A DNA stretch of 64,000 nucleotides from Candidatus Magasanikbacteria bacterium CG10_big_fil_rev_8_21_14_0_10_36_32 (GCA_002778465.1 PFBV01000002.1:2312-66311); one strand, 5' to 3'. Positions 3,158 to 62,765 are shown, numbered from the stretch's first letter. Made by a program: numbers and translations. The notes: generated from the letters alone by a model not told the origin.

Positions 3158-3975
3158 AAATTAAATGGCTCAATTTAGTTCTATGGTTAACGAATAAAGT
3201 TTATACTTTAAAAAAGAACTTGGTTGAGAGGACGGGACTTATTATTATTGTAACAGTGATAAAACTGTTAATTTTGGAAGTTGTATTGGCAATTATTTCA
3301 TTGCCACTTTATTTGGGTCTTAAAACTAAAACAACTGCCGTTTATTTGGCAGAAAAAAGCGGTTTTGGGCAGGTGGCTTTTGATTATCGTTTGCGTCGGC
3401 TGTTAACTTTAACTGGAGTTGGTGTTATTTTTTTAATTTGGACAGTAAAATTAATTTTGATTATTTCCGTACCCCGCGTTTATGGCCAGTTGCAATTATA
3501 CAAAGTCGTGAATTTTCAATCCGGCACGGGCTTGTCGCAACAGTTGATTAAAACTGAAACAGATATCCAAACCGCCAAAATTTCCAATAAAATTATTGTG
3601 CCAGTGATTGAAAATGTCACAAAAACAGGGATGGACAGTTATGCAGTATCCGGCTCAGGACAATCATTTTCCACGGTGGCAGTTATGCTAACCGGACAAC
3701 AAACAATAATTTATACCATTCAAGCTGATAATAATGGTTATTGGACAATGATTCACAATCAAAAGAATTTTAGGCTGAATGATGGAAATCATTCATTATT
3801 AGCGTTTACTTATGATAAAAAAACTGGGCAGCGCAGCGATATTTCTCCGGAACAGTTCTTTAAAGTTAAGACATCATTGATAGATCGTTTAGTGAAAAAC
3901 ATAGATACCCTGACTAATTGGTCGGTGGTTATTGTAATTTTATTGGGATTATTTTTAACCATCCTAACAATATGA
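3154..3975 (+). CDS. Membrane protein with Ig-like extracellular part; N-terminal module paralogous to that of the next gene
   Basis: 273 aa with multiple hydrophobic helices; the ISLPLY motif is shared with the N-terminus of the downstream giant protein. Confidence 0.5.
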   Translation: MKIKWLNLVLWLTNKVYTLKKNLVERTGLIIIVTVIKLLILEVVLAIISLPLYLGLKTKTTAVYLAEKSGFGQVAFDYRLRRLLTLTGVGVIFLIWTVKLILIISVPRVYGQLQLYKVVNFQSGTGLSQQLIKTETDIQTAKISNKIIVPVIENVTKTGMDSYAVSGSGQSFSTVAVMLTGQQTIIYTIQADNNGYWTMIHNQKNFRLNDGNHSLLAFTYDKKTGQRSDISPEQFFKVKTSLIDRLVKNIDTLTNWSVVIVILLGLFLTILTI

Positions 3976-6900
3976 TGATTAGTTGGTTAAAAATATTTTT
4001 TAAACTTTCCGGGCGGATTTTTGAATTGAAACAAAAATTATCCCAAACTGACAGTTGGATAAAATCTTTGCCTTACGCTTTCCTTTTGATTTTAGACGAA
4101 ATAGTTTTTGTTTTTATTTCTTTGCCGTTGTATTTTGCCGTGCCGCCCAAAAAAGTTCAAGAAAAAGGAATTTTATTTCCTTCAGCCGAACCGGAAACCG
4201 AAAGAATGAAAATGTTTTTTATCAGAAGAAAAATAAGTTTAATTGCTTTTATCACCGCATTGGGAATGTTAGTTTTAAAATTTTTGGTAATCGGCGGTAT
4301 TTCTTTTTATTTGATGGGCGGGCAATTGCTTTTGGCTGCCACTCAAGATTGGCTATTTACCGTCCCTGGCGATTATGCTTATGACAGTTCAAAAATTGAA
4401 TTTGTTGGAGGGATTGCCAGATTGAAAAATTTGGGAACAACGGTTACAGGCAGTACCACTAATGCTAATTTTAATACCAATGCTACTGGCTGGACTTATG
4501 CTGATTGGGATCAAGGCGGTGGTGAGGCGAATGTAGTTGGAACTTATGTGGCATCAGGGGGAAATCCAGGCGGATTTGTTCAAATTAATTTTCCAGTTGG
4601 TAAAAGCGATGAGTTTGGCGGATATTGGCGTCAAGGTTTTGCAATCACGGAAAATAATCCAACCGCAACCCTCAGTTTTGATTGGTCAATAACCGCTTTT
4701 GACAATACTCCCGCCCCAGTCACATTTAAACTTTATGCTTTCATAGATACAGGAACAGGTGTTCCGGTTATTGGTCAAGAAGTTTGGAAATCAGAAGAAA
4801 TTACCGCAACAAGCGCTTGGGTTTCTATGACAAATTTAAATATTTCTTCAAAAGTTACGGCCGCTGGCACTTATTATTTAAAAATTGCGGTATGGTTGGA
4901 AACCCCAAATAACAACACAGGTCCTTTTACGCTTGGTTACGATAATGTCATAGTCAATTGGTCAAAAACTACGATTGTTTATGATTCTAATCGTCCGACA
5001 ATTATACCAAACAATTCTTTAACACCGGTCAATCCGGCGATTTGGAGTTCTTTTACAGAAACAGCTACAAAAAACGGAGGAGAAATTTATTATCAGTTAT
5101 CGGCTGATAATGGTTCTACTTGGAACTATTGGAATGGTTCGTCTTGGATATCCGCCGGCGCGTCTAATTATAATACCGCCATTGTTGTTAATAATAATAT
5201 TGCCGGTTTTTCTACCAGCACCAACAAAATAAAATGGAAAGCTTTTTTGGAAAGCAATGGCAGTCAACAAGTTAGTTTAAGCAAGGTTTCCATCGGCTAT
5301 ACGGAAAATTCCGCTCCCAGTATTTCTGAAGTAGTTCCTGTTCAGCAGACAGATAAAGGCCAAGTTTATATTTCTTATAATTTAACTGATGTTGAAAGCG
5401 ACCCCTCCAGTTTAATTACTTATGAATATTCTTTGACGGGCGCTTTTTCCGGGGAACAGGTGACAATGATAGCGTCCACTACTAATCCAATGCACAATGG
5501 TGTGTCCGGTTTGTCGGCTTCTCCGTCTGGCATCTCGCATATTTTTGTTTGGGACGGAATTATTAATTTGCCCAATGTTTACAACACTAGTACTTATGTT
5601 CGTTTGCGCGCCAATGACGGTATCGCAAGTGGTGTTTATGTCACTTCTTCAGCTATTACGATTGATTATGTAGCACCGGTTATTAGTAATTTATCTGTTA
5701 CGCAAAATTCCGGCAGTGCTAATTTTGATATTTCTTATGATTTATTTGATAACACTTCTGATAATATAAATATTGTTTTAGAAATCTCTGATGATGGCGG
5801 TTTGACTTGGGTTGTGCCGACTGTGTCATCAGTCGGAGATTTGGGTTCCAGTGTTACAGCCGGTATCGGAAAAGTAATTACTTGGAATGCCGGAGTTGAT
5901 TATCCGGCTCATCAAGTTTCCAATATGCAAGTTCGTCTTTTGGTTAAAGATAAATATCAAAATCAAAGCGTTTATTTTAATTCAGTCAATTTTGAATTAG
6001 ATACTTTGGCGCCGGTGGCTGCAATTACAGTTGATTTAATGGCTCAGCCAAATGCCGGCGATACCGCAGTTTTAATTTTTGGTTCTTTTATTGAAACAAA
6101 TCCTAATTATAACAATTTTTTTGTTGGAGTAAACAATGGAGATTATGGTTCGGCCACAGTCGGTGATAGTAATACAATTTCTCCTTCTGCCCAGTTGGTT
6201 GCTACCGGTGTAACCTTAACTGGCGCTGATTATATTGGTAAAGCAAAGATTGCTCACACTGATGATTTTGGTTTTTCAACTGATAATGAAAATTTTTCTC
6301 CCAATAGTTCATATAAATATGTAAAACCTTATACTCCACCGGCGCCGACAGTAGGTAATCCGGCAGAAGGGTCGTTAGATGTCACTATCAACAAATATTC
6401 TTCTGAAGCTGATGGATTAGAATATTTAGTTTTTGAGAATACCCAATCAAAATATATTCAAGGCGATGGTTTATTAAGTGATAGTCCTGTTTGGTTGTCA
6501 TCAGGAACAATAACTGTAATCGGCTTGTCTGATCCTTTGTCGCAATATATTTTTAAAACAAAATCTCGCAACAATAGCGATGCGGCACATACTCTAACCA
6601 GTGAGAGTGAATGGTCGTCCGGCGCGTCTACTGATTATCAATCACCATCCGTAACAATCAATTCCGTTGCACAGACTATTAATGGAACTAAATATGTGAC
6701 AGTTGATTATGTTGGTATTGATTTTCAGAATGCTCAGAATAATCTGGTAGTATATGAATATTCCACCGATGGTTTTGGTTGGATGACAATGACGGAAAAA
6801 GTTGGTGTAGATTCCAACGGTGTAAGCGGTTTAAGTTTTTCTTCCGGCGGAACGGCTTTCAAATTCGCGTGGGATGTTGGAAACGATTTGTTTTTAACCG

Positions 6901-9683
6901 AAGATTCCACTGTTTATGTTCGTCTTCAATCCAACGACTCTATTAACAGTAGTAATCTATCTGTTTCGTCCGCTTTTTTTGTGGATACGGCCGGACCAAT
7001 AATTTCCAATATTAATGTTAGTCAAGCAACTTCTTCCAATAATATTATTATTAATTATGATTTAACAGATACTGCCGGAGCTGATAATTTTATTGAATTA
7101 TTAATCTCTGATGATAGTGGCAGTTCTTATGTTGTAAGCGTGTCTGCGGTTACCGGCGACATTGGCGAAGGTGTCAGTTCCGGTATTGGAAAAGAAATTA
7201 TTTGGAACGCTGGGACGGATTTTAACGGACAAGAGCAGTCTGATATGCGGATAAAAATCCGTGCTAAAGATAGATATCAAAATCAGGGAGATTTTACAGA
7301 ATCATCTGATTTTCTTTTAGACACCAAAGGGCCAATTGTTAGTGATGTAAATGCGGTTCAATCAAGCAGTACCGTGTTAATAAATTATACTTTATCTGAA
7401 AATGTCGGTTTAGTTGTGTTTGAGGTGTCTGATGACAGTGGATTAACTTGGGTGGTATCCACCAGCAGTGTCAATGGTGATATTGGCGCCGATCAATTGT
7501 CCGGTTTAAAAAATTTCCAGTGGAATGCCAAAATTAATTTTAATGATCAAGAACAAAACGATGTGATGGTTCGTATTAGGGCAACTGATTATTTTAATAA
7601 TGTGGGCGATTATGTTTCGTCGGCTATTTTTTCTTTAGATACTAAACCTCCGGTTATAAGCAATATTACCGCTAATCAAACTCTGAATACAAAAGATTTT
7701 TCATTTAGTTATGAATTATCCGATGCTTCAGCCACAGCCACCATAGTATTGGATATTTCTTCCAATAGCGGTTTGGATTGGAATGTGGCGACTAGTACTC
7801 TCTCTGGAGATTCGGGAGATAATATTACCATGGGTGTTAAAAGTTTAATTTGGAATGCTGGTACGGATTTCAATGATCAGGAGAGTAATGTTATGCGTTT
7901 ACGTTTTCGTGCCACTGATGCTTGGGGTAATGAAAGTTTATTTTTTGAATCATCCGATTTTTCAGTGGATACAGCCGCTCCATCTGGTTTGTCGGAATTA
8001 ACCAAATATAGCATTACTGCAACTTCAGTGACATTAAATTGGTCATCCGGAGTAAATGATTCAAATTTTAATCATTATGAACTGTGGTATGGCGCGAATC
8101 AAAATGATGTTTTAAACAGAGCTGGTTCTGCGGACAAGTGGGATTCATTGGATGATGTTGATTTGAATAATATTACTACAATTTCTACAATTATTTCAGG
8201 AACAAGTTTTATTACTACTAAATATATAAAAATTTGGGCGGTTGATAATTATGGCAATGAATCATCGGCGCCGGATATTTCAGTAATTTATATTCCGCCG
8301 ACAGTGACCTATGATTTAATAGTGCAGGCGCCTACCGGTTCAGGCTCAATTAATCCGGCAATTGGCACTCATACATATAGTAAAGGAACCAATGTAGAAA
8401 TTACCGCTACTCCGGATAGTGGTTGGAATTTTGGTGGTTGGATTTTGGATGATTTATCAGGAGGCAATACAAATCCATTAACTTTAATAATGAATGCCGC
8501 GCATACAATTGGCGCTGTATTTAGTGAGGAAACCGTATCTGTTCCTGAAAAACAAGCGCCATCAGGCGGCGCGCCATTAGTTGTGATTGAGGCAACAGAT
8601 ACTACTCCGCCAACCGCGCCGATTTTAACGCCGGTTGCCGGACCACTGTCTTCAACCAGGGTAAAAATTTCCGGTTTAGCCGAACCTGGTTCAAAACTTT
8701 TTTTATACGATAAGGAAAGTCTGGTGGGACAATTAAGTTCTTTGGTTGGTAACAATGGAAGATTTGAACAAACTTTTGTTTTTAATGAAGGTGAACATAT
8801 TTTAACTTCCAAGGCGGTTGACACCAAAGGAAATCTTAGTCAGATTTCAGAATCAATTACATTTGTGATTGATTTAACTCCGCCGGATGCGCCGCAAATT
8901 TTATCTCCGAAAGAAAACAGTGTTTTATTGGCTAATGAATTAGTTTTGGTTGGTTTATCCGAACCGTTAACCGTTATGGAAATTAATTTAAGAGAAAATA
9001 TTTACAATACTGTCGCCAACGAAAGAGGAGTTTGGCAATTTAACATCTTTAATGTTACTGAAATTATACAAGGACGCCAGACAGTGACTGTACGAGCTAA
9101 AGATGCGGCTGGAAATATTAGCCGGCCTGTAACTTGGATAGGTACAGTAACAGTAGTCACGACCACTGGTGCTATTTATCCGATTCAAATTTTACCACCG
9201 GAAATAATTTCTCCGACTCCGTTGGCGCCGGCATCAATAATTCGTGAAGTTAACCAAGCAATTGAGACCACAGCTATAACGACTCCGTCAGTGGTCAGTG
9301 TTGAATTTTCCGGAGCCGATGACATTATTAGTTTTGCCGGCAAAGCTAAACCCGATGAAGAAGTGATAATTTATATTCATAGTAATCAGGCGGTAGTTTA
9401 TCGTACTGTGGCGGATAATCAAGGTAATTGGCATGTTCATCATTCACAAAATGAATTGGAATTATCCTCCGGTGAGCACACGGTATATGCGGTTGGCATT
9501 AACAGTGAAACAAATCTTAAAAGTCCGCCAAGTTTGATAGGGACATTTATTATTGAAAAAAATTGGTGGGTTAATATTTATAGGCATTTTAATTTTACCT
9601 CAACTTTAATTACCATTGCTGTTTTATTGATGGTTATGTCGTGGTTGTATTGGTTACGCCGTCGGGAAACAGTTAAAATTTAA
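3972..9683 (+). CDS. Giant repeat-rich surface protein (1,904 aa from this start)
   Basis: ATG at 3972 overlaps the upstream stop (ATGA); the alternative upstream start at 3918 would give 1,921 aa. Contains an N-terminal membrane segment, a CBM-like jelly-roll region, five diverged ~105-aa repeats (SNLSVTQ...ISDDGGLTW...NAGVDY...DKYQNQ), FN3-like and Ig-like (bacterial Ig) segments, and a C-terminal TM helix with an RRRE tail. Confidence 0.7.
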   Translation: MMISWLKIFFKLSGRIFELKQKLSQTDSWIKSLPYAFLLILDEIVFVFISLPLYFAVPPKKVQEKGILFPSAEPETERMKMFFIRRKISLIAFITALGMLVLKFLVIGGISFYLMGGQLLLAATQDWLFTVPGDYAYDSSKIEFVGGIARLKNLGTTVTGSTTNANFNTNATGWTYADWDQGGGEANVVGTYVASGGNPGGFVQINFPVGKSDEFGGYWRQGFAITENNPTATLSFDWSITAFDNTPAPVTFKLYAFIDTGTGVPVIGQEVWKSEEITATSAWVSMTNLNISSKVTAAGTYYLKIAVWLETPNNNTGPFTLGYDNVIVNWSKTTIVYDSNRPTIIPNNSLTPVNPAIWSSFTETATKNGGEIYYQLSADNGSTWNYWNGSSWISAGASNYNTAIVVNNNIAGFSTSTNKIKWKAFLESNGSQQVSLSKVSIGYTENSAPSISEVVPVQQTDKGQVYISYNLTDVESDPSSLITYEYSLTGAFSGEQVTMIASTTNPMHNGVSGLSASPSGISHIFVWDGIINLPNVYNTSTYVRLRANDGIASGVYVTSSAITIDYVAPVISNLSVTQNSGSANFDISYDLFDNTSDNINIVLEISDDGGLTWVVPTVSSVGDLGSSVTAGIGKVITWNAGVDYPAHQVSNMQVRLLVKDKYQNQSVYFNSVNFELDTLAPVAAITVDLMAQPNAGDTAVLIFGSFIETNPNYNNFFVGVNNGDYGSATVGDSNTISPSAQLVATGVTLTGADYIGKAKIAHTDDFGFSTDNENFSPNSSYKYVKPYTPPAPTVGNPAEGSLDVTINKYSSEADGLEYLVFENTQSKYIQGDGLLSDSPVWLSSGTITVIGLSDPLSQYIFKTKSRNNSDAAHTLTSESEWSSGASTDYQSPSVTINSVAQTINGTKYVTVDYVGIDFQNAQNNLVVYEYSTDGFGWMTMTEKVGVDSNGVSGLSFSSGGTAFKFAWDVGNDLFLTEDSTVYVRLQSNDSINSSNLSVSSAFFVDTAGPIISNINVSQATSSNNIIINYDLTDTAGADNFIELLISDDSGSSYVVSVSAVTGDIGEGVSSGIGKEIIWNAGTDFNGQEQSDMRIKIRAKDRYQNQGDFTESSDFLLDTKGPIVSDVNAVQSSSTVLINYTLSENVGLVVFEVSDDSGLTWVVSTSSVNGDIGADQLSGLKNFQWNAKINFNDQEQNDVMVRIRATDYFNNVGDYVSSAIFSLDTKPPVISNITANQTLNTKDFSFSYELSDASATATIVLDISSNSGLDWNVATSTLSGDSGDNITMGVKSLIWNAGTDFNDQESNVMRLRFRATDAWGNESLFFESSDFSVDTAAPSGLSELTKYSITATSVTLNWSSGVNDSNFNHYELWYGANQNDVLNRAGSADKWDSLDDVDLNNITTISTIISGTSFITTKYIKIWAVDNYGNESSAPDISVIYIPPTVTYDLIVQAPTGSGSINPAIGTHTYSKGTNVEITATPDSGWNFGGWILDDLSGGNTNPLTLIMNAAHTIGAVFSEETVSVPEKQAPSGGAPLVVIEATDTTPPTAPILTPVAGPLSSTRVKISGLAEPGSKLFLYDKESLVGQLSSLVGNNGRFEQTFVFNEGEHILTSKAVDTKGNLSQISESITFVIDLTPPDAPQILSPKENSVLLANELVLVGLSEPLTVMEINLRENIYNTVANERGVWQFNIFNVTEIIQGRQTVTVRAKDAAGNISRPVTWIGTVTVVTTTGAIYPIQILPPEIISPTPLAPASIIREVNQAIETTAITTPSVVSVEFSGADDIISFAGKAKPDEEVIIYIHSNQAVVYRTVADNQGNWHVHHSQNELELSSGEHTVYAVGINSETNLKSPPSLIGTFIIEKNWWVNIYRHFNFTSTLITIAVLLMVMSWLYWLRRRETVKI

Positions 9684-14843: not shown

Positions 14844-15128
14844 TTCACCCCGTTAGAGATATTTATGGTTTATATTTATTTAATGCAGAGCAAGAAAGAT
14901 AATCTTTGGTATACAGGTGCTACTAGAGATTTAAAAAAACGTTTTAAAGAGCATAATGATGGGAAAGTAAAAGCAACAAGGGATAGAAGACCTTTTGTGT
15001 TAATATATTATGAAGCTTGTTTGAATGAACACGATGCTTTTACTCGTGAAAAATATTTAAAGTCAGGAATGGGAAAACGTTATCTTAAAAATCGTTTAAA
15101 ACGTTTTTTATCTCTAACGGGGTAAATT
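14842..15128. mobile_element. 287-bp mini-element: GIY-YIG gene bounded by 19-bp terminal inverted repeats (18 of 19 bp match)
   Basis: Left IR AATTCACCCCGTTAGAGAT (14842-14860) against right IR ATCTCTAACGGGGTAAATT (15110-15128). The element sits exactly between the methyltransferase stop and the start of the MBL gene. Confidence 0.4.
14865..15125 (+). CDS. Small GIY-YIG nuclease family protein (YhbQ/UPF0213-like)
   Basis: VYIYLMQS...LWYTGATRDLKKRFKEHN GIY-YIG motif; 86 aa; homologous to the ORF at 47285. Confidence 0.8.
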   Translation: MVYIYLMQSKKDNLWYTGATRDLKKRFKEHNDGKVKATRDRRPFVLIYYEACLNEHDAFTREKYLKSGMGKRYLKNRLKRFLSLTG

Positions 15129-18136: not shown

Positions 18137-19060
18137 ATGTCTCCATTGGAACAATCCATCGTGAGAACTTTGACTTATTTTGATTTAGTTGATTATCCTT
18201 TAACCAAAGAGGAATTATTTTCTTATCTTTGGCGTCCGCCATTCGGTCGTTATGATGATTTTTTAACCGCTTTAGAATCGGGCAGTCAAAAATGGGAAAA
18301 TAAGTGGGGTTATTATTTTTTGTCTGGACGGGAACATATTGTTGAAAATCGCCGAGTGCGATTATTGCCCAGCGAACAAAAGTTACGTTTAGCGCGTCGT
18401 GCGGCAAAAAAAATTCGTTCCGTTCCTTTTTTGCGGGCGATTTTTTTATGTAATTCAGTTGCTTCCGGAACAGCCGGCGAATCCAGTGATATAGATTTTT
18501 TTATTATTGCCGATCCAAAAAGAATTTGGTTGGTGCGTTTTTTTACCAATTTTATTTTAAAACTTTTTGGTTGGCGTACTTATGGACAAAAAATTCGCAA
18601 TAGAATCTGTTTGTCTTTTTATGTTGATGGAGGACATTTGGATATTTCCCCGTTGCGAGCGGTGCCGGAAGATATCCATTTTATTTATTGGTTGTATCAA
18701 ATGTTGCCGCTTTATGATCCGGACAATTATAATGATAAATTTTTAAAGGCTAATAAATGGGCGGGTGATTATTTGCCCAATCTCAAAAAAGAAAATTTGC
18801 CGATTAGCGATTCGGCATTTCAAAATTCTCGGCTTGGCTTAATTTGGAAAAAAATTTGGGAAAAAATGTGGAGTGTCGGTTACGGCGATTTGCTTGAAAG
18901 TCAAGCTAAGGGATTTCAGTTGGCCATGATGAAAAAGAATATTAAATCAATGGCGGATATGGGGGATAATAGTGTAGTTATTGGAGATTCCGTCATCAAA
19001 TTACACGAAAACGATACAAGAAAGGAATATTATGAAAAATGGAAAAGCAGAATAAATTAA
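18137..19060 (+). CDS. Nucleotidyltransferase-fold protein of unknown specificity
   Basis: GS-x9-DxD pattern (VASGTAGESSDIDFFII) typical of the Pol-beta/CD-NTase superfamily; 307 aa. Confidence 0.5.
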   Translation: MSPLEQSIVRTLTYFDLVDYPLTKEELFSYLWRPPFGRYDDFLTALESGSQKWENKWGYYFLSGREHIVENRRVRLLPSEQKLRLARRAAKKIRSVPFLRAIFLCNSVASGTAGESSDIDFFIIADPKRIWLVRFFTNFILKLFGWRTYGQKIRNRICLSFYVDGGHLDISPLRAVPEDIHFIYWLYQMLPLYDPDNYNDKFLKANKWAGDYLPNLKKENLPISDSAFQNSRLGLIWKKIWEKMWSVGYGDLLESQAKGFQLAMMKKNIKSMADMGDNSVVIGDSVIKLHENDTRKEYYEKWKSRIN

Positions 19061-20403
19061 TATTTAATATGTTATCTCGCCTTACTAATTATCTTATCCT
19101 CTTATTTTTATTTGCGTTGCCTTTTCAAACCCGTTGGATTATTGAATATGGAATTTTAAATAATCGTCCATGGGAATTTGGGACTATCAGTTTGTATGGT
19201 ACGGAATTTTTTTTATGGCTGATAGTGATTTTGACCGGCATTCGGATTTTTGGCCGACCGGATTTTTGGAAATCATTCTCAAATTGTAGAATCAATGCTG
19301 ATTATTTTAAAATGCACAAAAAAAATATATTGGCTGTTTTGATTTTTTTATTCAGCACGGCTGTTTTTATACGTTCCGGCAATCCGATATCATGGCAATT
19401 TACCACTTGGTTTTTGGGAGGAATATGTTTAATGATTTCAATAGCTGTATCTGAATTATCTTTTTCCCGTGCCGGCATGACATTGTGGTTAAGCGGGGTT
19501 GTGCAAGGAGTATTGGCAGTTCAACAATTTTTTTATCAAAAAATTATTGGTTCAAAATGGTTAGGTATGTCCGCACAAAATTCAAGTGACTCAGGAGTTA
19601 GTGTGGTGCAGTTTGGTGACGAACGCTGGCTGAGAGCCTATGGCAGTTTTGGATGGCCTAATTCTTTGGGAATTTATTTAGCAGTTATCTTTGTTTTGGG
19701 TTTAATTTTATATTTTTATTTTTCTAAAACTAAATGGCGAATATTAATCCTGGTGGGACAATTGATTATTCTAACGGGGTTATTATTGTCTTTTTCCCGC
19801 GGTGCTTGGTTGGCGGCAGTTGGCGGTTTGCTTATTTTTGGGTTGATTGCTTGGAATAATCTGCCTTTTGAATTTACGCGGCGTAAATTTTATAGTCAAT
19901 TTGTAAAACAGTTGGCAGTTTATGCGGTATTAGTAATCAGTCTGGTGACGATTTATTTTCCAGTTTTTACAAATCGGTTTAATACAGGTAATTATTTGGA
20001 ATATTTATCTATAACGGAACGGCAAGATCAATTGAATGTTGCTGGTCAGATGATATCGGACAATTTATTTTTTGGTGTTGGCCCCGGATTGTACACTAAT
20101 TATTTGGCTAGATATTTTGTTTCGCCGACATATGGAGTTTATCAGCCTGTCCATAATATTTTTTTATTAGCACTGGCTGAATTGGGTATATTTGTGTTTT
20201 TATTTATTTTGGTCTTTGTCTTTTGGTTGATTAAAAAAATCGGTCGCGCCGGACCGATTTATTTTTCCGTTTTGACAGTTTTGTTTTTAGCCGGTTTTTA
20301 TGATCATTTTCTTTGGAGTTTATACGCCGGTCAGTTGATTTGGTGGGTGGTTTTGGCTTTAGGATTAATGTTAAAAAAATCGCAATCCAATATTGAAAAA
20401 TAA
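19039..20403 (+). CDS. O-antigen ligase (Wzy_C) family membrane protein
   Basis: Polytopic; SFSRGAWLAAVGG motif. Confidence 0.7.
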   Translation: MEKQNKLIFNMLSRLTNYLILLFLFALPFQTRWIIEYGILNNRPWEFGTISLYGTEFFLWLIVILTGIRIFGRPDFWKSFSNCRINADYFKMHKKNILAVLIFLFSTAVFIRSGNPISWQFTTWFLGGICLMISIAVSELSFSRAGMTLWLSGVVQGVLAVQQFFYQKIIGSKWLGMSAQNSSDSGVSVVQFGDERWLRAYGSFGWPNSLGIYLAVIFVLGLILYFYFSKTKWRILILVGQLIILTGLLLSFSRGAWLAAVGGLLIFGLIAWNNLPFEFTRRKFYSQFVKQLAVYAVLVISLVTIYFPVFTNRFNTGNYLEYLSITERQDQLNVAGQMISDNLFFGVGPGLYTNYLARYFVSPTYGVYQPVHNIFLLALAELGIFVFLFILVFVFWLIKKIGRAGPIYFSVLTVLFLAGFYDHFLWSLYAGQLIWWVVLALGLMLKKSQSNIEK

Positions 20404-43591: not shown

Positions 43592-45463
43592 ATGGCATTT
43601 AAACCAAGCTCAATTAAAGCAGAAAAAGAATCTACTGGTCGTCTTAAAGAAGATGAAAACAAAATAAAGAAGCAGACGGCCGAAGAAATGATTACTTTGG
43701 AAGAAGAAAAGATTTTTCGCGAAGGTGTTGTCAGTATCCGTGATTTAATAGCGCCTTCCGCTTTTCGCGTTGAATCCAGTTTTATACAATTGGGTGATTT
43801 ATATTGCCGGACTATTTTCATTACCGCTTACCCGAGATATATTTCCATCGGCTGGAGTTCGCCGGTTATTAATTTGTCGGTCACCATGGACATCTCAATG
43901 TTTTTTTATCCGGTTAAATCAGCTGTTATTTTAAAACAATTAAAAAATAAAGTCGGCGCTTTGGAAGCGCAAATTAGTTCCGACACAGAAAAAGGCGCGC
44001 CTCGCGATCCAATTCGGGAAACAGCTTTGCGCGATATTGAACAATTGCGAGATAATTTAACGCAAGGAATTGAACATTTTTTTCAATTTTGTTTTTATGT
44101 TACTCTTTACGCCAAAAGTAAAGAGGAATTGGATCAAACCACTGAAGATATTGAAAATATTTTCGGTTCAAAACTGATTATGAGTCGCAAAGTTTTATAT
44201 CAGGCGGAACAAGGTTTTAATTCCACTTTACCGATGGCAAATGACGAATTGTACATTGCTTTTAATATGAATTCGTCTCCGATTGCCGCTTCTTTTCCAT
44301 TTATTTCCGCGGAATTAACCTCAGATGATGGTATTCTTTATGGCATTAATCGCCATAATAACAGTTTGATTTTGTTTGACCGGTTTTCTTTGCAAAATGG
44401 CAATATGGTGGTTTTCGCTTCGGCCGGTGCCGGAAAAAGTTACGCCGTTAAACTGGAAGTTTTGCGCACAATGATGATGGGAACCGATGTGATGATTATT
44501 GATCCGGAAATGGAATATAAACATCTTTGTGATGCGGTTGGTGGAACTTACATTAGTATTTCGTTGTCTTCGGAAGCAAAAATCAATCCATTTGATTTGC
44601 CCCGTCCGGTCGGTTCTGATATTTCCACTGAGGATATTATTCGTAGCGCCGTTATTACCATGAAAGGCTTGTTGCGTATTATGTTGAATGGTTTGACGGT
44701 GGAGCAGGATTCAATTATGGATAGAGCTTTGATTGAAACTTACGCCAAGAAAGATATTACGCCGGAGGCGGATTTATCCAATATTAAACCGCCGATTATG
44801 CAGGATTTAGTGGAAGTTTTGGAAGGTATGCAAGGTTCCGATGAATTGGTAATGAAATTAAAAAAATATACCGAAGGAACTTTCAGTGGACTGTTTAATT
44901 CGCCGACTAATGTTGATGTTAAAAATCAATTGGTGATTTATAGTGTTCGTGATTTAGAGGATGAACTTCGCCCGATTGCTATTTATTCAATCGTTAACTA
45001 TATTTGGAATGTTGTACGTTCGGAAAGAAAAAAACGAGTTTTGGTGATTGATGAAGCTTGGTGGCTGATGATGCATGAGGACAGCGCCAGATTTATTTAT
45101 GGTTTGGTTAAACGCTGCCGAAAATATTATCTCGGAGTGACTACTATCACTCAGGATGTGAATGACTTTTTGAAATCTCAATATGGACAGGCGATCGTTA
45201 CCAACTCGGCTTTGCAGTTGTTGTTGCGTCAGTCGCCGGCGGCGGTGGATTTGGTTCAGCGGGTGTTTATGTTGACTGACAGCGAGAAATATTTGTTATT
45301 GGAAAGCGGAGTGGGCGAGGGTATATTTTTTGCCGGCAATAAACATGCCGCCATTAAAGTTGTTGCTTCTTATACAGAAGATCAGTTGGTTACCACCAAT
45401 CCGGAACAATTATTGGCTATAGAAAAAGCAAAGCGCGAATTTGAAGAACAGAGTAAAAAATAA
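43592..45463 (+). CDS. VirB4/TraC/TrbE-like conjugative-type ATPase
   Basis: Walker A (ASAGAGKSY), Walker B (VLVIDEAWWL), and a VirB4-like C-terminal region. Confidence 0.8.
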   Translation: MAFKPSSIKAEKESTGRLKEDENKIKKQTAEEMITLEEEKIFREGVVSIRDLIAPSAFRVESSFIQLGDLYCRTIFITAYPRYISIGWSSPVINLSVTMDISMFFYPVKSAVILKQLKNKVGALEAQISSDTEKGAPRDPIRETALRDIEQLRDNLTQGIEHFFQFCFYVTLYAKSKEELDQTTEDIENIFGSKLIMSRKVLYQAEQGFNSTLPMANDELYIAFNMNSSPIAASFPFISAELTSDDGILYGINRHNNSLILFDRFSLQNGNMVVFASAGAGKSYAVKLEVLRTMMMGTDVMIIDPEMEYKHLCDAVGGTYISISLSSEAKINPFDLPRPVGSDISTEDIIRSAVITMKGLLRIMLNGLTVEQDSIMDRALIETYAKKDITPEADLSNIKPPIMQDLVEVLEGMQGSDELVMKLKKYTEGTFSGLFNSPTNVDVKNQLVIYSVRDLEDELRPIAIYSIVNYIWNVVRSERKKRVLVIDEAWWLMMHEDSARFIYGLVKRCRKYYLGVTTITQDVNDFLKSQYGQAIVTNSALQLLLRQSPAAVDLVQRVFMLTDSEKYLLLESGVGEGIFFAGNKHAAIKVVASYTEDQLVTTNPEQLLAIEKAKREFEEQSKK

Positions 45464-45493
45464 TTCACTTTTTATTTAACAGGGTAAAACAAT

Positions 45494-46090
45494 ATGACTA
45501 CACTCCGCACAAGAATTTTTATTATTTTTAGCATATTTTTTCTGTTCGTTTTAGCGGTTAGCATTATTTTGATTGTGATTAATAAGCAAAAACAGGCGGT
45601 TATTGAAACAACTTCTACACCGTCGGCGATAGATTTTGATAATTTTACGCAGGATAAAATTAGCGCGCCGGCTGCCCAAGTGACGCCAACTCAAGGAATA
45701 ACCGTAAAACAACCAACCACTGAGGAACAAATGAAAAATGCCGCTAAACAGATAGCAAAGATTTTTGTGGAACGCTATGGCACTTATTCCACTGATAATA
45801 ATTTCAGCAATATTAAAGAATTGGATACAATGTGCAGTCGGGATTTGTGGAGTGTTTTAAGTTCGCGGATAACTGACACTCAGGTCAATAACGGATTTGT
45901 CGGTGTTACCACTAAAGCGGTTACCTCAGTAATCACTTCTTGGCAAACAGATAAAGCTATTGTTGAAATTACAACTGTCCGGACAGAAACAAAAGATGGC
46001 GTCACTTCTTCAAAAAATCAAAAAGCTACAGTTACTTTGGTTAATGTTCAGAATAATTGGCTGGTGGATGATGCAAAATGGGGACAATAA
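45494..46090 (+). CDS. Membrane-anchored protein (possibly VirB8-like)
   Basis: N-terminal TM helix plus a ~160-aa extracytoplasmic domain; the call rests on context only. Confidence 0.4.
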   Translation: MTTLRTRIFIIFSIFFLFVLAVSIILIVINKQKQAVIETTSTPSAIDFDNFTQDKISAPAAQVTPTQGITVKQPTTEEQMKNAAKQIAKIFVERYGTYSTDNNFSNIKELDTMCSRDLWSVLSSRITDTQVNNGFVGVTTKAVTSVITSWQTDKAIVEITTVRTETKDGVTSSKNQKATVTLVNVQNNWLVDDAKWGQ

Positions 46091-47221: not shown

Positions 47222-47274
47222 GGAGAGGTGGCTTCTGAGCTCCTGCCTGCCGGTAGGCAGGGGTCGAAAGCGGT
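47222..47274 (+). pseudogene. Decayed duplicate of the first 29 nt of tRNA-Ser(GCU), with a 20-bp palindrome inserted in the D-loop
   Basis: GGAGAGGTGGCT-TCT-GAGCT-[CCTGCCTGCCGGTAGGCAGG]-G-GTCGAAAGCGG matches nt 1-29 of the intact tRNA at 47529; interrupted by TCT and the palindrome. Confidence 0.5.
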
Positions 47275-47284
47275 AATAAAATTT

Positions 47285-47527
47285 ATGTATTGCGTGTATT
47301 TTTTACAAAGTCTGAAAGATAAAGGTTTGTACATCGGAAAAACGAATAATATTAAACGTCGGTTATCTGAACACAACGCCGGTAAAGTTCAATCGACAAA
47401 AAGTAGAAAACCTTTTATTTTGTTGGGATTAGAAAAATACCAAACAGAAAAAGAATGTTTGGCGGCAGAATTAGAATGGAAAAAAGGATATAAACGCGAA
47501 CAATTAAAAGTTAGATATAGTCTATAA
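47285..47527 (+). CDS. Small GIY-YIG nuclease family protein (paralogue of 14865..15125)
   Basis: VYFLQSLKDKGLYIGKTNNIKRRLSEHN GIY-YIG motif; 80 aa; the stop codon lies 1 nt (t47528) before nt 1 of tRNA-Ser. The ORF-track start at 47165 reads through the tRNA fragment and is rejected. Confidence 0.75.
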   Translation: MYCVYFLQSLKDKGLYIGKTNNIKRRLSEHNAGKVQSTKSRKPFILLGLEKYQTEKECLAAELEWKKGYKREQLKVRYSL

Positions 47528-47528
47528 T

Positions 47529-47624
<96 letters not shown>

Positions 47625-47967: not shown

Positions 47968-48003
47968 AATTTTTTAACCAAGATTTTATTTAACGGGGTA
48001 AAT

Positions 48004-49569
48004 ATGAATAATCATTTAAAATCAATTTTAAAAATCCTGTTAATCGTTTTGTCCTACACTTTCATCATCTGCATTTTTTCCAACAGCTATGACTATGATT
48101 TAGGCTGGCATTTGAGATTTGGCAAAGAATTTTGGGAAAGTTTGAAATTTTCTTTTACCGACACTTACACTTGGCAACATTTTGGACAGTTTTGGACAAA
48201 TCATGAATGGGGAGGTGATTTATTGTTTTGGCCGATTTACAACGATCTTTCTTATTTTGGCTTAATTTTATTAGTCGCTTTGTCGCCGTTGGCGGCGTTT
48301 TTAATTGTTTTGAAAATTTTTCAGCCGCGATGGACGATAGCCGGATTGATTTTAATTTTTGTTTTTTTATGGACAATGCCGCATATCCTGATTTTGCGTT
48401 TGGCAATGTTAACGCCGTTATTTTTGGCAATTCTTTGGTATTTTTTGGAAAAATTTCCTAAGCAAAATAATTATTTTTTTTGGCCGTTGGTATTATGGTT
48501 TTGGTCAATTTTGCATGGCAGTTGGATTTTAGGTTTTATTGTGATTGGTATTTATAGTTTTGGAAATATTTTAAATTTGGTGGCGAAAAAATATTGCCCG
48601 CGTTTTCATAATCCAAAATTATGGTCAATTAAAGATATTCGGAATGCTATTGTTTGGACTTTGATTTCCGCCGGCGTGATTTGCATTAATCCTTATGGTT
48701 GGCATATTTGGCAAGAAGTTATAAATTATTTTTCTTTGTCATTTTACAAATTGCATATCTTGGAATGGGTGCCGAGTTATGTTTATCCGATTTATTGGAA
48801 ACCGCTGTTTATTATGGGCGCCGGCATTCCGTTGGCAGTTTGGGGTTTTGTTAAAAAAAGAGTGACTTTACCGCAAATTCTCTTATTCGCCGCTCTTTGG
48901 TTGGCCGCTTGGCAATATAAACGGCAGGCGATTTTATTTTTATTGGTTTGTCTGTCGTTGTTTTCAGGTTGTTGGGAAATAGTAAAATCAAGGTTATTAA
49001 ATCGTTTTACAATCAAAGTTGTTTATTTTTTTCCGATTATTGCCGTGTTTTTATTAATCGTCGGTTATTTAATCAGGATTGATTGGACAAAAGATATTTG
49101 GAATAATCAAAGTTTATTATCTGCTAACACCATGCCGGTTGAAGCGGTTGAATTTTTGAAGGAACGAACTGTCGGACACACAACTTTTGTATTTAATGAA
49201 TTCAGCTGGGGCGGATATATGAATTGGACATGGCCGGAGGGGTTGGTTTTTTTTGACGGTCGTGGCGCCGCCACTTGGATGTATGATAAAAAAACAACAA
49301 TGACTGAAAAATATTTTAATATTAAATATGAAGCCGGCGGATTTGAATTTTTAGAAGCTTCTCCGGCTGAATATATCATACTCAGTAAAGATGTTATCGC
49401 TTATCCGCCACCGGATAAATTAAACCGGTTGTTTTTTGGACAAAAAGATTTGGATAAAATTTTAAAACCCGCTTCGCCACAGCTTCAGCAAATGCTTGAC
49501 CGGAGCCAAAGTTGGCAAAATATCTATGAAGATGAAGTTTGTAATGTTTGGCAACGGTTCAGCCGATAA
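48004..49569 (+). CDS. Polytopic membrane protein, possible GT-C-type glycosyltransferase
   Basis: About 12 TM helices, 521 aa, with a C-terminal soluble domain. Confidence 0.55.
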   Translation: MNNHLKSILKILLIVLSYTFIICIFSNSYDYDLGWHLRFGKEFWESLKFSFTDTYTWQHFGQFWTNHEWGGDLLFWPIYNDLSYFGLILLVALSPLAAFLIVLKIFQPRWTIAGLILIFVFLWTMPHILILRLAMLTPLFLAILWYFLEKFPKQNNYFFWPLVLWFWSILHGSWILGFIVIGIYSFGNILNLVAKKYCPRFHNPKLWSIKDIRNAIVWTLISAGVICINPYGWHIWQEVINYFSLSFYKLHILEWVPSYVYPIYWKPLFIMGAGIPLAVWGFVKKRVTLPQILLFAALWLAAWQYKRQAILFLLVCLSLFSGCWEIVKSRLLNRFTIKVVYFFPIIAVFLLIVGYLIRIDWTKDIWNNQSLLSANTMPVEAVEFLKERTVGHTTFVFNEFSWGGYMNWTWPEGLVFFDGRGAATWMYDKKTTMTEKYFNIKYEAGGFEFLEASPAEYIILSKDVIAYPPPDKLNRLFFGQKDLDKILKPASPQLQQMLDRSQSWQNIYEDEVCNVWQRFSR

Positions 49570-50799: not shown

Positions 50800-52797
50800 A
50801 TGGCCGAAGGTGCAATTAAAAAAATCGCGGAAAAAATACAGCTTATTCCAGCCAGGAAAAATAATTGGAAAACCGTCGTAATAATATTGGCGGTTGTTTT
50901 TGGTTTATTGGCGGTTGTGTTCGGCGTATCAGTCGTTTATTCCAAAACATACGTTGGAAAAGTTTATCCCGGAATTTATCTTGGGCATTATGATTTGTCA
51001 GGTTGGACAGCCGATGATGTAAAAAAGTTTGTTGATAGTTTTAGCCGACGTTTATCTCAGGAAGGATTGGTTTATATGTTTGAGCAAAACGGGCAATCGC
51101 AAAGAGTAGCGGTTAATCCGGCGCTTATTTCCAGCGAAGCGGCCATTGAAACGATTTTTTTAAGCAATAAAGAATTTGCCGGTGAAATTTTAAATATTGG
51201 CAGGGGAGAATCTTTTTGGTTTAAAAAAATGTGGCTGCCGTTGTGGTATAGAATAAAAACGATTCATTTGTCTTTGCCGGTGAAAATTGACCGTCAGAAT
51301 TTTCAAGGGATTATAGAAAACGCGTTAGAGGGATATGTGATTGAACCGCGTGACGCCAATATTCATTTGAGCAGTATTAATCCGTTGGCTTATGAGCTGA
51401 CTTTAGAACAATCAGGTGAAGTTTTTGATTATGAACAAATTATAGATGATACAGTTCAAAAATTATCTGAGCCGTCGCTGGAATCAATCGTTATTTCAAA
51501 ACGGTTGGTTATTCCATCGGTGACAAAAAAAGATTTAGCGGCAGCTGAAGAAAATATTTTAAGGGCGTTTAATTTTGGTCCGGCGATATTATCCCATACC
51601 GATACCGATGCCAAAGAAACTCAAGTTTGGTCGGTTGGTCCGGAATTATTGGTAAAATGGTTAAAACCTGTTTATGATTCCACCGGGAAAATTAAGTTGG
51701 AATTAAAAGAAAAAGAAGTGGGTCAATATTTGGAAAATTTGAGGGTGATTGTTGATCAGCCGGCTGAGGATGCTAAATTTTCAATGGAAAATGGCAAGGT
51801 GAGTGAATTTAAAAATGGTCATTCCGGACGCAGTTTGAATGTGGCTAAAACTTACGGTGAATTAAATAATTTATTTATCAAAATAAGCCAAGGAGAAAAT
51901 GTTGATAAAACAGTTATTAATTTAGCGGTTGACCAAACCGAACCGAAATTGAAATTATCCGATATTAATGATTATGGAATTACCGGAATATTCGGCGTTG
52001 GTACTTCAACTTTTTATGATAGTCATAATAACCGCATTAAAAATATTGCCAACGCAGTTGAACGGTTGAATGGTATAATTATCAAGCCGGGGGAAGAATT
52101 TTCTTCTATTAAATATGCCGGTTCATTTACTGAAGAAAATGGATTTTTACCGGAAGAAATAATCAAAGGCAATAAAATTATTAAAGAAGTCGGAGGAGGA
52201 ATGTGTCAGATTGGCACCACTTTGTTCAGAATGGCCATGAATTCCGGTATGCCGATTACAGAACGAACCAATCATTCTTTGGTGGTTGGTTATTATGCAG
52301 ATCCAATTAATGGAAATCCGGGTACGGACGCTACTTTGTATGAACCAATTTTGGATTTTAAATTTATGAATGATACCGGCGGTTATTTGTTGTTGCAAAC
52401 GGAAATTAATTATAAAAAACAAATGTTGATTTTTACTTTGTGGGGAACACCTGATGGTCGTTCTGGATTTTATAGCCGTCCGATAGTGAGTAAATGGATT
52501 CCAGCCGGTTTGCCGCAAGAAATAAAAACAACCACTTTAAAACCTGGTGAGACAAAATGTCAAAATGCATTTCGTGGCGCGAACGCCAGTTTTACATATA
52601 CTCGGTTTAATCAATCGGGTGAAAAAATTGAACGGGTATTTTCCAGTTATTACCGTCCGTTGCCAAAAATGTGTATGACTGGCATTAGTCCGAATGAATG
52701 CCCTGACGGAAAAACAACTTGTGATATTATTGTTAAAAATACAGCCACCAGTACGCCTTCGGCCACACCGAATTCTCAACCTCTTTTAGCTGACTAG
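50800..52797 (+). CDS. VanW family protein with N-terminal TM helix
   Basis: VanW signature GGGMCQIGTTLFRMAMNSG. Confidence 0.7.
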   Translation: MAEGAIKKIAEKIQLIPARKNNWKTVVIILAVVFGLLAVVFGVSVVYSKTYVGKVYPGIYLGHYDLSGWTADDVKKFVDSFSRRLSQEGLVYMFEQNGQSQRVAVNPALISSEAAIETIFLSNKEFAGEILNIGRGESFWFKKMWLPLWYRIKTIHLSLPVKIDRQNFQGIIENALEGYVIEPRDANIHLSSINPLAYELTLEQSGEVFDYEQIIDDTVQKLSEPSLESIVISKRLVIPSVTKKDLAAAEENILRAFNFGPAILSHTDTDAKETQVWSVGPELLVKWLKPVYDSTGKIKLELKEKEVGQYLENLRVIVDQPAEDAKFSMENGKVSEFKNGHSGRSLNVAKTYGELNNLFIKISQGENVDKTVINLAVDQTEPKLKLSDINDYGITGIFGVGTSTFYDSHNNRIKNIANAVERLNGIIIKPGEEFSSIKYAGSFTEENGFLPEEIIKGNKIIKEVGGGMCQIGTTLFRMAMNSGMPITERTNHSLVVGYYADPINGNPGTDATLYEPILDFKFMNDTGGYLLLQTEINYKKQMLIFTLWGTPDGRSGFYSRPIVSKWIPAGLPQEIKTTTLKPGETKCQNAFRGANASFTYTRFNQSGEKIERVFSSYYRPLPKMCMTGISPNECPDGKTTCDIIVKNTATSTPSATPNSQPLLAD

Positions 52798-52829
52798 CTG
52801 TGTTGGCAGGATAATTTAAACTAAAAAAC

Positions 52830-52861
52830 AAACCACCCCGCATTATTTTGCGGGGTGGTTT
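52830..52861. terminator. Hairpin terminator (stronger on the minus strand)
   Basis: AAACCACCCCGCA-TTATTT-TGCGGGGTGGTTT; the U-tract lies on the minus strand (GTTTTTTAG). Confidence 0.5.
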
Positions 52862-53095
52862 AATTGATATTGGGGGAATGAACCCCCTAGAGTTCCGTAT
52901 TCAAGAAGATGTGTCAAAGGTGGAGATAAGCCGTGGCCTATGCAGACCGTTAACACATCCCCATGCTTGTGGTGAATACGGGAAATTGCTCGTTTTTTCT
53001 CGTTAAAAGGGGCAATTTCTCGTATTCTTACAGCATTGGATGTCCGTAGATTTTCAAACAACAAAGTATTGTATCACATCTAAATCATTTTGTCA

Positions 53096-53212
53096 ACCCC
53101 GTTAGAAAAGCCAATTGAAAAATTTTAGTAATCTTAGCCTAAAAATTGAATAATACCCTGTGGATAAACCTTTAGAAAAGCATCTTTTCGTGGAATAATT
53201 TTCTAACGGGGT
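53096..53212. repeat. Perfect 14-bp inverted-repeat pair enclosing ~90 bp with no ORF; same core as the GIY-YIG element IRs
   Basis: ACCCCGTTAGAAAA (53096-53109) against TTTTCTAACGGGGT (53199-53212); the core ACCCCGTTAGA is shared with the IRs at 14842/15128. Confidence 0.45.
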
Positions 53213-53221
53213 CAAGCCCGA

Positions 53222-53241
53222 CCTGCCTGCCGGCAGGCAGG
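53222..53241. repeat. 20-bp perfect palindrome CCTGCCTGCCGGCAGGCAGG within a ~80-bp GC-rich hairpin cluster
   Basis: The same palindrome (one mismatch) sits inside the tRNA 5' fragment at 47242-47261; local GC exceeds 65% against a ~35% background. Confidence 0.45.
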
Positions 53242-53421
53242 CGTAAAAAAGTCGGGGTCCCGACCCCCCAAAGGGGCGTCGGGAGGGATCAATTTAGTCA
53301 TTTTTTGGTTTAAACTGGGGAAAAATATTATTTTTGGCTAATGTTAGGGTTAAAATCTGTATTATCCGTATTTTGTTTATTAATTCAAGTCAATGTGTTA
53401 ATTTTATTTATTTTTATTTCA

Positions 53422-53473: not shown

Positions 53474-53632
53474 TTATTTGCGATTGTGTATGATGTTATA
53501 GAAAAATTCAGCGCTGACTGCGCCAAGGGCTATACCAAACAGAATACCAATCGCGCCCAATGAATTTTTGAATAAGAATCCGATGACTCCTCCGGCCACA
53601 GCTCCAATGAGCATAATTGATTTGTCCAACAT
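53474..53632 (-). CDS. Small membrane protein, tentatively GlsB/YeaQ/YmgE-like
   Basis: 52 aa, Gly-rich TM helices; an AAGGAG SD lies 7 nt upstream of the ATG (MLDKS). The longer ORF-track start is rejected. Confidence 0.45.
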   Translation of the reverse strand: MLDKSIMLIGAVAGGVIGFLFKNSLGAIGILFGIALGAVSAEFFYNIIHNRK

Positions 53633-53715
53633 TATTTGTCTCCTTGGTTTTGGTTGCGTATTAAAAAGAACATTGTTCAAAAGATAGCATTTTTATATAG
53701 ATGTGTCAATTATAG

Positions 53716-62736: not shown

Positions 62737-62765
62737 ACCCCGACTTTAAGTCGGGGTTTTTATTT
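62737..62765 (+). terminator. Rho-independent terminator
   Basis: CCCCGAC-TTTAA-GTCGGGG hairpin plus TTTTTATTT. Confidence 0.55.

Follow-up and report, generated by a model that had tools for sequence, protein, structure and literature searches.

Probable selfish DNA: a nested palindromic segment linked to GIY-YIG cassettes in a Magasanikbacteria genome

Several described systems combine short palindromes or small nuclease genes with dispersal. REP palindromes carry a conserved head, either GTAG or CGTC (PMC3733652). T4 SegB is a free-standing GIY-YIG homing endonuclease gene that lies in a tRNA gene cluster (PMC2330249). And mobile GC clusters and palindromic repeats are found in the AT-rich mitochondrial genomes of fungi (PMC4478555, PMC7218506). 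Here we describe a segment that resembles each of these in part. It begins at position 53096 of a 64,000-nucleotide stretch from Candidatus Magasanikbacteria bacterium CG10_big_fil_rev_8_21_14_0_10_36_32. (We refer to the entire stretch as the window; coordinates without a locus number are positions in it.) Searches of the full-text literature for the palindrome's sequence, and for GIY-YIG proteins together with palindromes, tRNA, or Patescibacteria, returned no description of these repeats, but the coverage of such searches is limited and this is no proof of novelty. As explained below, we regard it as probable selfish DNA and doubt that it is an RNA gene.

The segment contains three palindromic units. 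The first is a perfect 14-bp inverted repeat. Its left arm, ACCCCGTTAGAAAA (53096-53109), and its right arm, TTTTCTAACGGGGT (53199-53212), are complementary at 14 of 14 positions and enclose 89 nt of AT-rich filler (53110-53198), which is non-coding in all six reading frames. (The first base of the left arm overlaps the -35 box of a minus-strand promoter for a small RNA, or sRNA.) We will call such a pair of arms a frame. The filler includes a degenerate second left arm, CCTTTAGAAAAGC, at 53169-53181, and the unit as a whole is flanked by the 4-nt direct repeat TCAA. The right arm is followed directly by CAAGCCCGAC, which resembles the CAAGC..CGAC that follows right arms at another locus (L055). 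Then comes a host hairpin, CCCGA(C)...GTCGGG with the loop GTAAAAAA (53213-53257). At its stem-loop junction is the second unit, the perfect 20-bp palindrome CCTGCCTGCCGGCAGGCAGG (53222-53241). This palindrome, which we call PAL, is a copy of a 20-nt insertion unit that is found across phyla. If PAL (53222-53241) is removed, the window reads CCCGAC-GTAAAAAA-GTCGGG. The third unit is a palindrome within a palindrome, TCCCGAC[CCCCCAAAGGGG]CGTCGGGA (53258-53284), in which the arms TCCCGAC and GTCGGGA surround the center CCCC(C)AAAGGGG. On the minus strand, 53271..53252 forms a weak terminator-like hairpin and is followed by TTTTTT.

The composition of the segment is also unusual. The 80 bp at 53207-53286 are 71% GC, which is the highest 80-bp value in the window (36.5% GC overall), and the folding energy of the segment has a z-score of -4.0 on the + strand and -5.4 on the - strand. 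There is a single other near copy of PAL in the window, with one mismatch (GGT for GGC), at 47242-47261, where none would be expected by chance. An 11-mer core of the arms, ACCCCGTTAGA, is present five times in the window, versus 0.02 copies expected from shuffled sequences: in both arms of the unit at 53096-53212, in both arms around a GIY-YIG gene that we call GIY-YIG #1 (14847 and 15113), and at 19770. So the architecture that the first-pass annotation described from the window was right: a 14-bp inverted repeat around about 90 bp of non-coding DNA, a core shared with the repeats around GIY-YIG #1, a perfect palindrome with a near version inside a tRNA fragment beside a second gene (GIY-YIG #2), further GC-rich hairpins (which reach 53284), and over 65% GC across about 80 bp. 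(The fifth copy of the core, TCTAACGGGGT at 19770-19780, is inside a coding gene, 19039-20403, where its translation is ..IILTGLL..; this copy could be left over from a right arm or could match by chance.)

The segment lies between a VanW-like gene (50800-52797, + strand) and a small minus-strand ORF (53474-53680). Both have intrinsic terminators, at 52830-52861 for the VanW-like gene and at 53454-53433 (minus strand) for the small ORF. The first-pass annotation had placed the segment in a 680-bp intergenic region. This region does hold a gene, however: a conserved, structured sRNA is encoded in its left third (52862-53060, minus strand). A near-consensus promoter on the minus strand (TTGACA at 53096..53091, a 17-nt spacer, and TG-n-TACAAT ending at 53068) reads away from the segment and into a highly structured RNA of about 200 nt (z = -7.7). 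The sRNA (52829-53096 region, minus strand) ends at a bidirectional terminator, 52862-52829. It is kept downstream of VanW in relatives from other Magasanikbacteria (L121-L124), and a comparison of these with the window shows compensatory changes, with G.U pairs that are valid on the minus strand only. The sRNA at 52862-53060 did not match any Rfam family. The gap between the terminator of the small minus-strand ORF and the sRNA promoter is predicted to be transcriptionally quiet. (The small ORF at 53474-53680 encodes a glycine-zipper-like membrane protein, of 68 amino acids if it starts at TTG or 55 if it starts at ATG. Besides its terminator it has its own promoter-like site, and it is missing from the syntenic spacer in L122-L124.)

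Comparing gene order among these relatives indicates that the segment is extra DNA. In L122, L123, and L124, the order is HSP20-VanW-spacer-ClpP-DHH-SMC, and the 340-bp spacer between VanW and ClpP holds the sRNA, its promoter, and the ClpP terminator only. The frame and the GC hairpins are absent from the syntenic position in all three. Since these spacers lack the segment, the DNA from 53097 to about 53760 (the frame, the GC hairpins, an AT-rich stretch, and the small ORF) is extra in the window's genome. The conserved -35 box is exactly where the left arm starts. In the closest relative, L121 (75% identity in VanW), the contig ends within the -35 box, at the boundary of the segment. A repeat would cause such an end during assembly, but this proves nothing.

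We then examined the frame in other genomes. In the window, GIY-YIG #1 is encoded by a cassette on the + strand (14847-15123) with left arm ACCCCGTTAGAGATA at 14847-14861 and right arm TATCTCTAACGGGGT at 15109-15123. Its ORF (14865-15125) encodes 86 amino acids of the UPF0213 type, and the right arm encodes the C-terminal ..SLTG. Among 80 metagenomic loci that encode relatives of GIY-YIG #1 (50-77% identity), the majority carry this frame too, with the left arm 3-15 nt ahead of the ATG. The right arm supplies the final codons (..S/Y-L-T-G) and the stop, often overlapping the ATG of the next gene. The consensus of the frame is TT[CT]A-CCC[CAT]GT[GT]A[GA]A ... T[CT]T[AC]AC[GAT]GGG-T[GA]AA. The window's own core also frames GIY-YIG genes in about 30 metagenomic cassettes. 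Across 44 distinct units, changes in one arm are matched in the other: without exception at positions 6 and 8 (G-C/T-A 16:28 and A-T/G-C 13:31), and at position 10 with four Watson-Crick pair types in 43 of the 44. Wobble pairs in the 44 units show no strand preference, and both G.T and A.C mismatches are present. The covariation is compatible with a symmetric site in DNA and also with a stem in RNA.

One cassette gives evidence of insertion. In L164, a framed GIY-YIG cassette of 285 bp (1752-2036) interrupts a gene for an integron-integrase-like tyrosine recombinase, within the catalytic C-terminal motif. Without these 285 bp, which the arms bound, the ORF is intact again (..GYDIRSVQELLGH|KDVSTTMIYTHVLNKPGLGVRSPLD*). 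The window also has two solitary motifs on the + strand that resemble right arms. One, TATTTAACAGGGTAAA (45473-45488), lies just before an ATG at 45494 and is preceded by the same 14 nt, AAAAAATAATTCAC, that stand to the left of the GIY-YIG #1 cassette. The other, TATTTAACGGGGT(AAAT) (47987-47999), lies just before an ATG at 48004. These look like footprints of lost cassettes or preferred junction sites. We considered whether AACGGGGTAAAT might be a Shine-Dalgarno sequence and rejected this: most genes in the window have no motif of this kind, so the solo motifs are not ordinary ribosome-binding sites. (The solo motifs share the form TATTTAAC[A/G]GGGTAAA, at 45455-45493 and 47983-48003, and each precedes a start codon.) There is also a variant arrangement, in L182 (2486-2850) and in L189 and L200, in which the GIY-YIG ORF is outside the frame and runs into the left arm (..GGIHPVR*), with a 95-nt empty frame after the ORF. 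It looks as if the frame was inserted into the ORF's own 3' end.

Frames with no ORF, like the one at 53096-53212, are found in the same contigs as the GIY-YIG cassettes. These units are 28-140 bp long. We detected 21 ORF-less pairings of left and right arms, with about 17 unique units in the roughly 250 kb of loci that were selected for GIY-YIG genes; in the roughly 900 kb of loci that were selected for PAL, ORF-less units are confined to one locus. The window (64 kb) has one full unit, one empty unit, and two or three solo arms. L055 has four empty units. One of these, CCCCGTTAGAAAATATTTTCTAACGGGG (7392-7419), is a perfect 28-nt palindrome whose arms are exactly those of the window, so the window's unit can best be viewed as this palindrome carrying 89 nt in the middle. 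A unit in L125 (455-522) has the window's arms, identical to the window's left arm and its partner, and also the window's TCAA flanks. Two of the L055 units are at different loci yet have interiors that are 92% identical, which suggests that these are multi-copy, MITE-like units. The interiors of short units are GC palindromes themselves, such as TCCGCCAGCTGGCGGA. We found no target-site duplication of a fixed length: 4-nt direct flanks are present in 5 of 49 units, including the window's (TCAA), and the flanks of the 49 units are mostly an extension of the inverted repeat (TTCA/TGAA).

These results bear on two suggestions about the unit at 53096-53212. That it is a MITE-like derivative is supported, since ORF-less units from the same family of inverted repeats are common beside GIY-YIG genes in other genomes. 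That it is a remnant that has lost its cargo is not. The window's 89 nt and the interiors of the 21 other empty units have no similarity to GIY-YIG ORFs. We looked for a decayed ORF and rejected this reading: the filler (53110-53198), which has stops in every frame, had no blastn or six-frame similarity to GIY-YIG loci, and a comparison of the 21 empty interiors with 33 GIY-YIG cassettes found none either. The window's unit could equally be a palindrome that is unoccupied or that was filled in a different way.

The frame could instead be an unoccupied or refilled homing site and not a decayed or non-autonomous element. The roughly 30-bp palindrome would be the recognition site of the GIY-YIG nuclease, the ORF would home into its center, and the copy in the window would be a target that has acquired other filler. 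We rate this reading as improbable, though several observations fit it. The perfect 28-nt palindrome in L055 has the same arms, the GIY-YIG ORF always lies between the arms, what lies inside empty units bears no relation to the ORF, and insertion into the centers of palindromes is a general pattern in these data. But palindromes with unrelated flanks must have spread themselves, rather than being mere targets in the host. Also, the empty units seem to be multi-copy, with shared interiors. And the right arm is part of the conserved C-terminus of the ORF (..YLTG* or ..SLTG*), which argues that the ORF and this arm travel together.

The second unit, PAL, has its own distribution. An exact search with one genome per species found PAL in at least 120 genome stretches. 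The matches listed are from at least eight phyla and have unrelated flanks. They include Patescibacteria, Bacteroidota (with cultured isolates), Omnitrophota, and Planctomycetota, as well as Gammaproteobacteria, Bdellovibrionales, Nitrospirota, and Chloroflexota. PAL is also present in 47 stretches of viral contigs from IMG/VR. (In these loci, L001-L120 and L205-L251, the exact 20-mer CCTGCCTGCCGG[C/T]AGGCAGG is often within short tandem-repeat-like sequence or nested in itself. Other palindromes recur there as well: TCCGCCAGCTGGCGGA, ATCCCCGAC..GTCGGGGAT, and GTCATTCCCGCGAAAGCGGGAATC.)

PAL is found in the D-arms of tRNAs, in the loops of terminators, in other hairpins, and in PAL itself. Deleting its 20 nt restores contiguous tRNA sequence in six cases: L025 (54 nt, 98% identity), L044 (45 nt), L052 (30 nt, 100%), L093 (33 nt, 100%), L021, and the window's tRNA-Ser. 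In these cases, PAL is thus a clean insertion without target duplication. PAL is nested within PAL in L020, L026, L032, L040, and L109; it is in the loop of a terminator in L110 and in other GC hairpins in L030, L045, L070, and L100. More broadly, the flanks of PAL form perfect stems of at least 7 bp for 13.8% of copies, as compared to 2.8% of control positions. In the window, to judge from the junction left when PAL is removed, PAL again sits within a hairpin.

It had been suggested that PAL is the target site of the GIY-YIG proteins, which does not agree with its behavior as an inserted 20-nt unit. About 95% of the copies listed have no GIY-YIG gene nearby, and one viral contig has at least six copies of PAL with no GIY-YIG gene in the stretches examined. 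Its behavior is that of an inserted element, with or without a dependence on GIY-YIG nucleases. The first-pass annotation had held that its reading would fail if the palindrome and the core of the arms were present at many unrelated loci with no association with GIY-YIG genes. This is largely what we see for PAL, but not for the core.

Nevertheless, the link between PAL and GIY-YIG genes is not random. GIY-YIG is the sole family of small proteins that recurs beside PAL, at 5 of 120 genome loci (among the matches listed) and at 1 of 47 viral loci; we found no other recurrent family near PAL. About 4% of PAL copies are in a fixed module, with an orphan 5' fragment of a tRNA that contains PAL, then a GIY-YIG gene, and then an intact tRNA of the same identity. 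Every stand-alone GIY-YIG gene that is beside PAL shows this module, with PAL in the D-arm and a gene of the #2 type. In the window, the module (47222-47621, + strand) comprises an orphan tRNA-Ser 5' fragment (47222-47273) that is split by a T-variant of PAL (47242-47261), the GIY-YIG #2 ORF (47285-47527), and the intact tRNA-Ser (47529-47621). The other modules have tRNA-Lys (L052, 2100-2480), tRNA-Leu (L093, 1400-1832), tRNA-Arg (L025, 3446-3900), and tRNA-Met (L117, 2686-3046), and versions with the tRNA fragment and PAL but no GIY-YIG gene are in L021 (Met, 4020-4165) and L044 (Val, 3600-3787). So the association that was proposed between the palindrome and GIY-YIG genes is real, but it is limited to a small minority of PAL copies.

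The two GIY-YIG proteins of the window are bare catalytic domains (PF01541, E = 1e-16 and 4e-18; 86 amino acids for #1 and 80 for #2). Among solved structures, those of the UPF0213 proteins BH0048 and EF2693 are nearest to them. They score 24 bits against TIGR01453, below its cut-off of 56 bits, and they do not have the C-terminal DNA-binding extension of I-TevI or the Seg proteins. To our knowledge, GIY-YIG proteins are not transposases. Stand-alone nucleases of the UPF0213 type are very widespread.

Putting these observations together, we consider it reasonably likely that the segment is nested selfish palindromic DNA that is linked to GIY-YIG cassettes, and not an RNA gene. Membership in repeat families, covariation of the arms, discrete insertions, nesting, and absence from relatives are all seen directly. 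Unit 1 (53096-53212) is an ORF-less member of the frame family, that is, a palindrome of about 30 bp that holds 89 nt of unrelated filler; the arms normally enclose a minimal UPF0213 GIY-YIG gene (about 85 amino acids, with just the catalytic domain). Unit 2 (PAL) would be a 20-bp palindrome that spreads by inserting exactly its 20 nt into DNA able to form hairpins. Unit 3 (53258-53284) is a further case of a palindrome in a palindrome. The centers of palindromes and the loops of hairpins would be the favored points of insertion.

As to how the frames might move, we infer a role for the nuclease, and the mode of PAL's insertion is similarly our inference. The framed GIY-YIG nuclease might cut such palindromes. 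As it has no DNA-binding domain, it would probably recognize either symmetry or structure in its substrate. The content of an occupied frame, whether ORF or filler, could then be copied into an empty frame during repair. Frames that have no ORF, 53096-53212 among them, would spread in trans, as MITEs do. In the tRNA-linked modules, PAL might split a direct repeat that would otherwise delete the gene.

There is also an argument against reading the segment as selfish DNA. Selection for an RNA stem could also produce the covariation of the arms. Perfect arms beside filler that is unrecognizable imply selection or gene conversion on the arms, and such selection could reflect a function for the host, as a terminator or an insulator. 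The hairpins would then act on RNA or on transcription: they would terminate transcripts or shield the sRNA promoter from read-through, and the inverted repeat would be an RNA stem, perhaps one that sequesters a ribosome-binding site or is cut by RNase III. RNA structures of this kind, such as those that sequester ribosome-binding sites, are known for the mRNAs of homing endonucleases, and in full cassettes the left arm covers the position of the GIY-YIG gene's ribosome-binding region. The segment folds strongly, with a terminator-like hairpin and a run of T on its minus strand (53271..53252). PAL is sometimes flanked by A/T runs or within terminators (L055 and L110), and a CCCCGAC/GTCGGGG stem forms an ordinary terminator at 62738. 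We still think that a role in RNA or transcription is quite unlikely. The relatives manage without the segment, and a proper terminator is already present upstream (53454-53433). The unit in the window encloses no ORF to regulate. The absence of a strand preference among the wobble pairs (G.T and A.C are both seen) and of any Rfam family also weigh against it.

The first-pass annotation had also argued, from the high GC content, for a structured RNA or a recognition site for a protein or nuclease. A covariance search of 53096-53290 against Rfam 15 had no hits at the gathering threshold and only chance-level hits at E <= 10, ARAGORN found no tRNA in the segment, and the junction at 53222 that is left by deleting PAL has no similarity to tRNAs. 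A discrete structured small RNA, or a degenerate tRNA-like remnant, is thus very improbable even though the segment is GC-rich in an AT-rich genome, folds with z-scores of -4 to -5, and shares PAL with a tRNA fragment elsewhere in the window: it matches no Rfam family and no tRNA, the latter also when PAL is taken out; it lies between a terminator and a promoter rather than being framed by a promoter/terminator pair; syntenic relatives have not kept it; and its parts recur separately with unrelated flanks.

Reading the segment as selfish DNA has practical consequences. It should not be annotated as an RNA gene, and the real, conserved sRNA is immediately to its left. Repeats of these kinds break assemblies, create spurious ORFs (such as ..LPAGRQG..), and split tRNA-like fragments, so recognizing them improves annotation. 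If minimal GIY-YIG nucleases do mobilize the frame and PAL, this would give a role to an orphan family of nucleases (UPF0213/YhbQ-like), would establish a tiny autonomous element that has non-autonomous derivatives of its own, and would explain the build-up of identical GC palindromes in genomes from the CPR and elsewhere. A bolder form of this idea, which we offer as a speculation, is that UPF0213 GIY-YIG nucleases are the engines of a palindrome-centered mobility system. With its gene of about 260 bp in a palindrome of about 30 bp, this system would include the smallest autonomous mobile element in bacteria. ORF-less frames would be its MITE-like derivatives, and PAL would be mobilized in trans, with no target duplication, into hairpin loops (of tRNA D-arms, terminators, and other palindromes) across phyla and phages.

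How do these repeats compare to known systems? Like the palindromic elements of Rickettsia (RPEs), they are palindromic repeats that are found both inside genes and between them, but RPEs are 100-150 bp, are restricted to a lineage, and are not tied to a nuclease gene. Like the GC clusters of fungal mitochondria, these GC palindromes insert into each other and lie beside endonuclease ORFs. Unlike the GC clusters, they are in bacterial chromosomes and phage contigs, they have other sequences, and one 20-mer recurs from phylum to phylum.

Free-standing GIY-YIG homing genes share several features with the cassettes and modules. The gene is beside or within conserved genes (a tRNA or an integrase), the target is partly duplicated, and there are versions with the gene (modules in L025, L052, L093, L117, and the window) and without it (L021 and L044), although we found no pair of alleles from one species. 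But the Seg endonucleases are not like the UPF0213-type domains of 80-86 amino acids described here, which have no DNA-binding extension and score below the TIGR01453 cut-off, and neither the inverted-repeat frame nor the PAL-split tRNA fragment has a counterpart at Seg loci.

The REP/REPIN and RAYT systems are similar in that GC-rich extragenic palindromes are tied to one small nuclease-type gene that is flanked by the repeats, and in that REPs and REPINs, too, have a possible secondary role as terminators. In our case there is no Y1 (IS200/IS605-like) transposase, and the gene that the frame flanks is GIY-YIG. Nor do the sequences have the GTAG or CGTC head: PAL starts with CCTG and the frame with (A)CCCC. 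Also, REPs are specific to lineages, but identical copies of PAL are found in different phyla.

Finally, the frames differ from MITEs and their partners in that the "autonomous" partner would be just about 290 bp and encodes a bare GIY-YIG domain rather than a known transposase. Also, one arm is part of the coding sequence, and there is no consistent target-site duplication. In other ways they do resemble MITEs: they are short non-coding units whose terminal inverted repeats also bound a protein-coding element, they seem to be multi-copy, with unrelated flanks, and they are nested and clustered in intergenic DNA.
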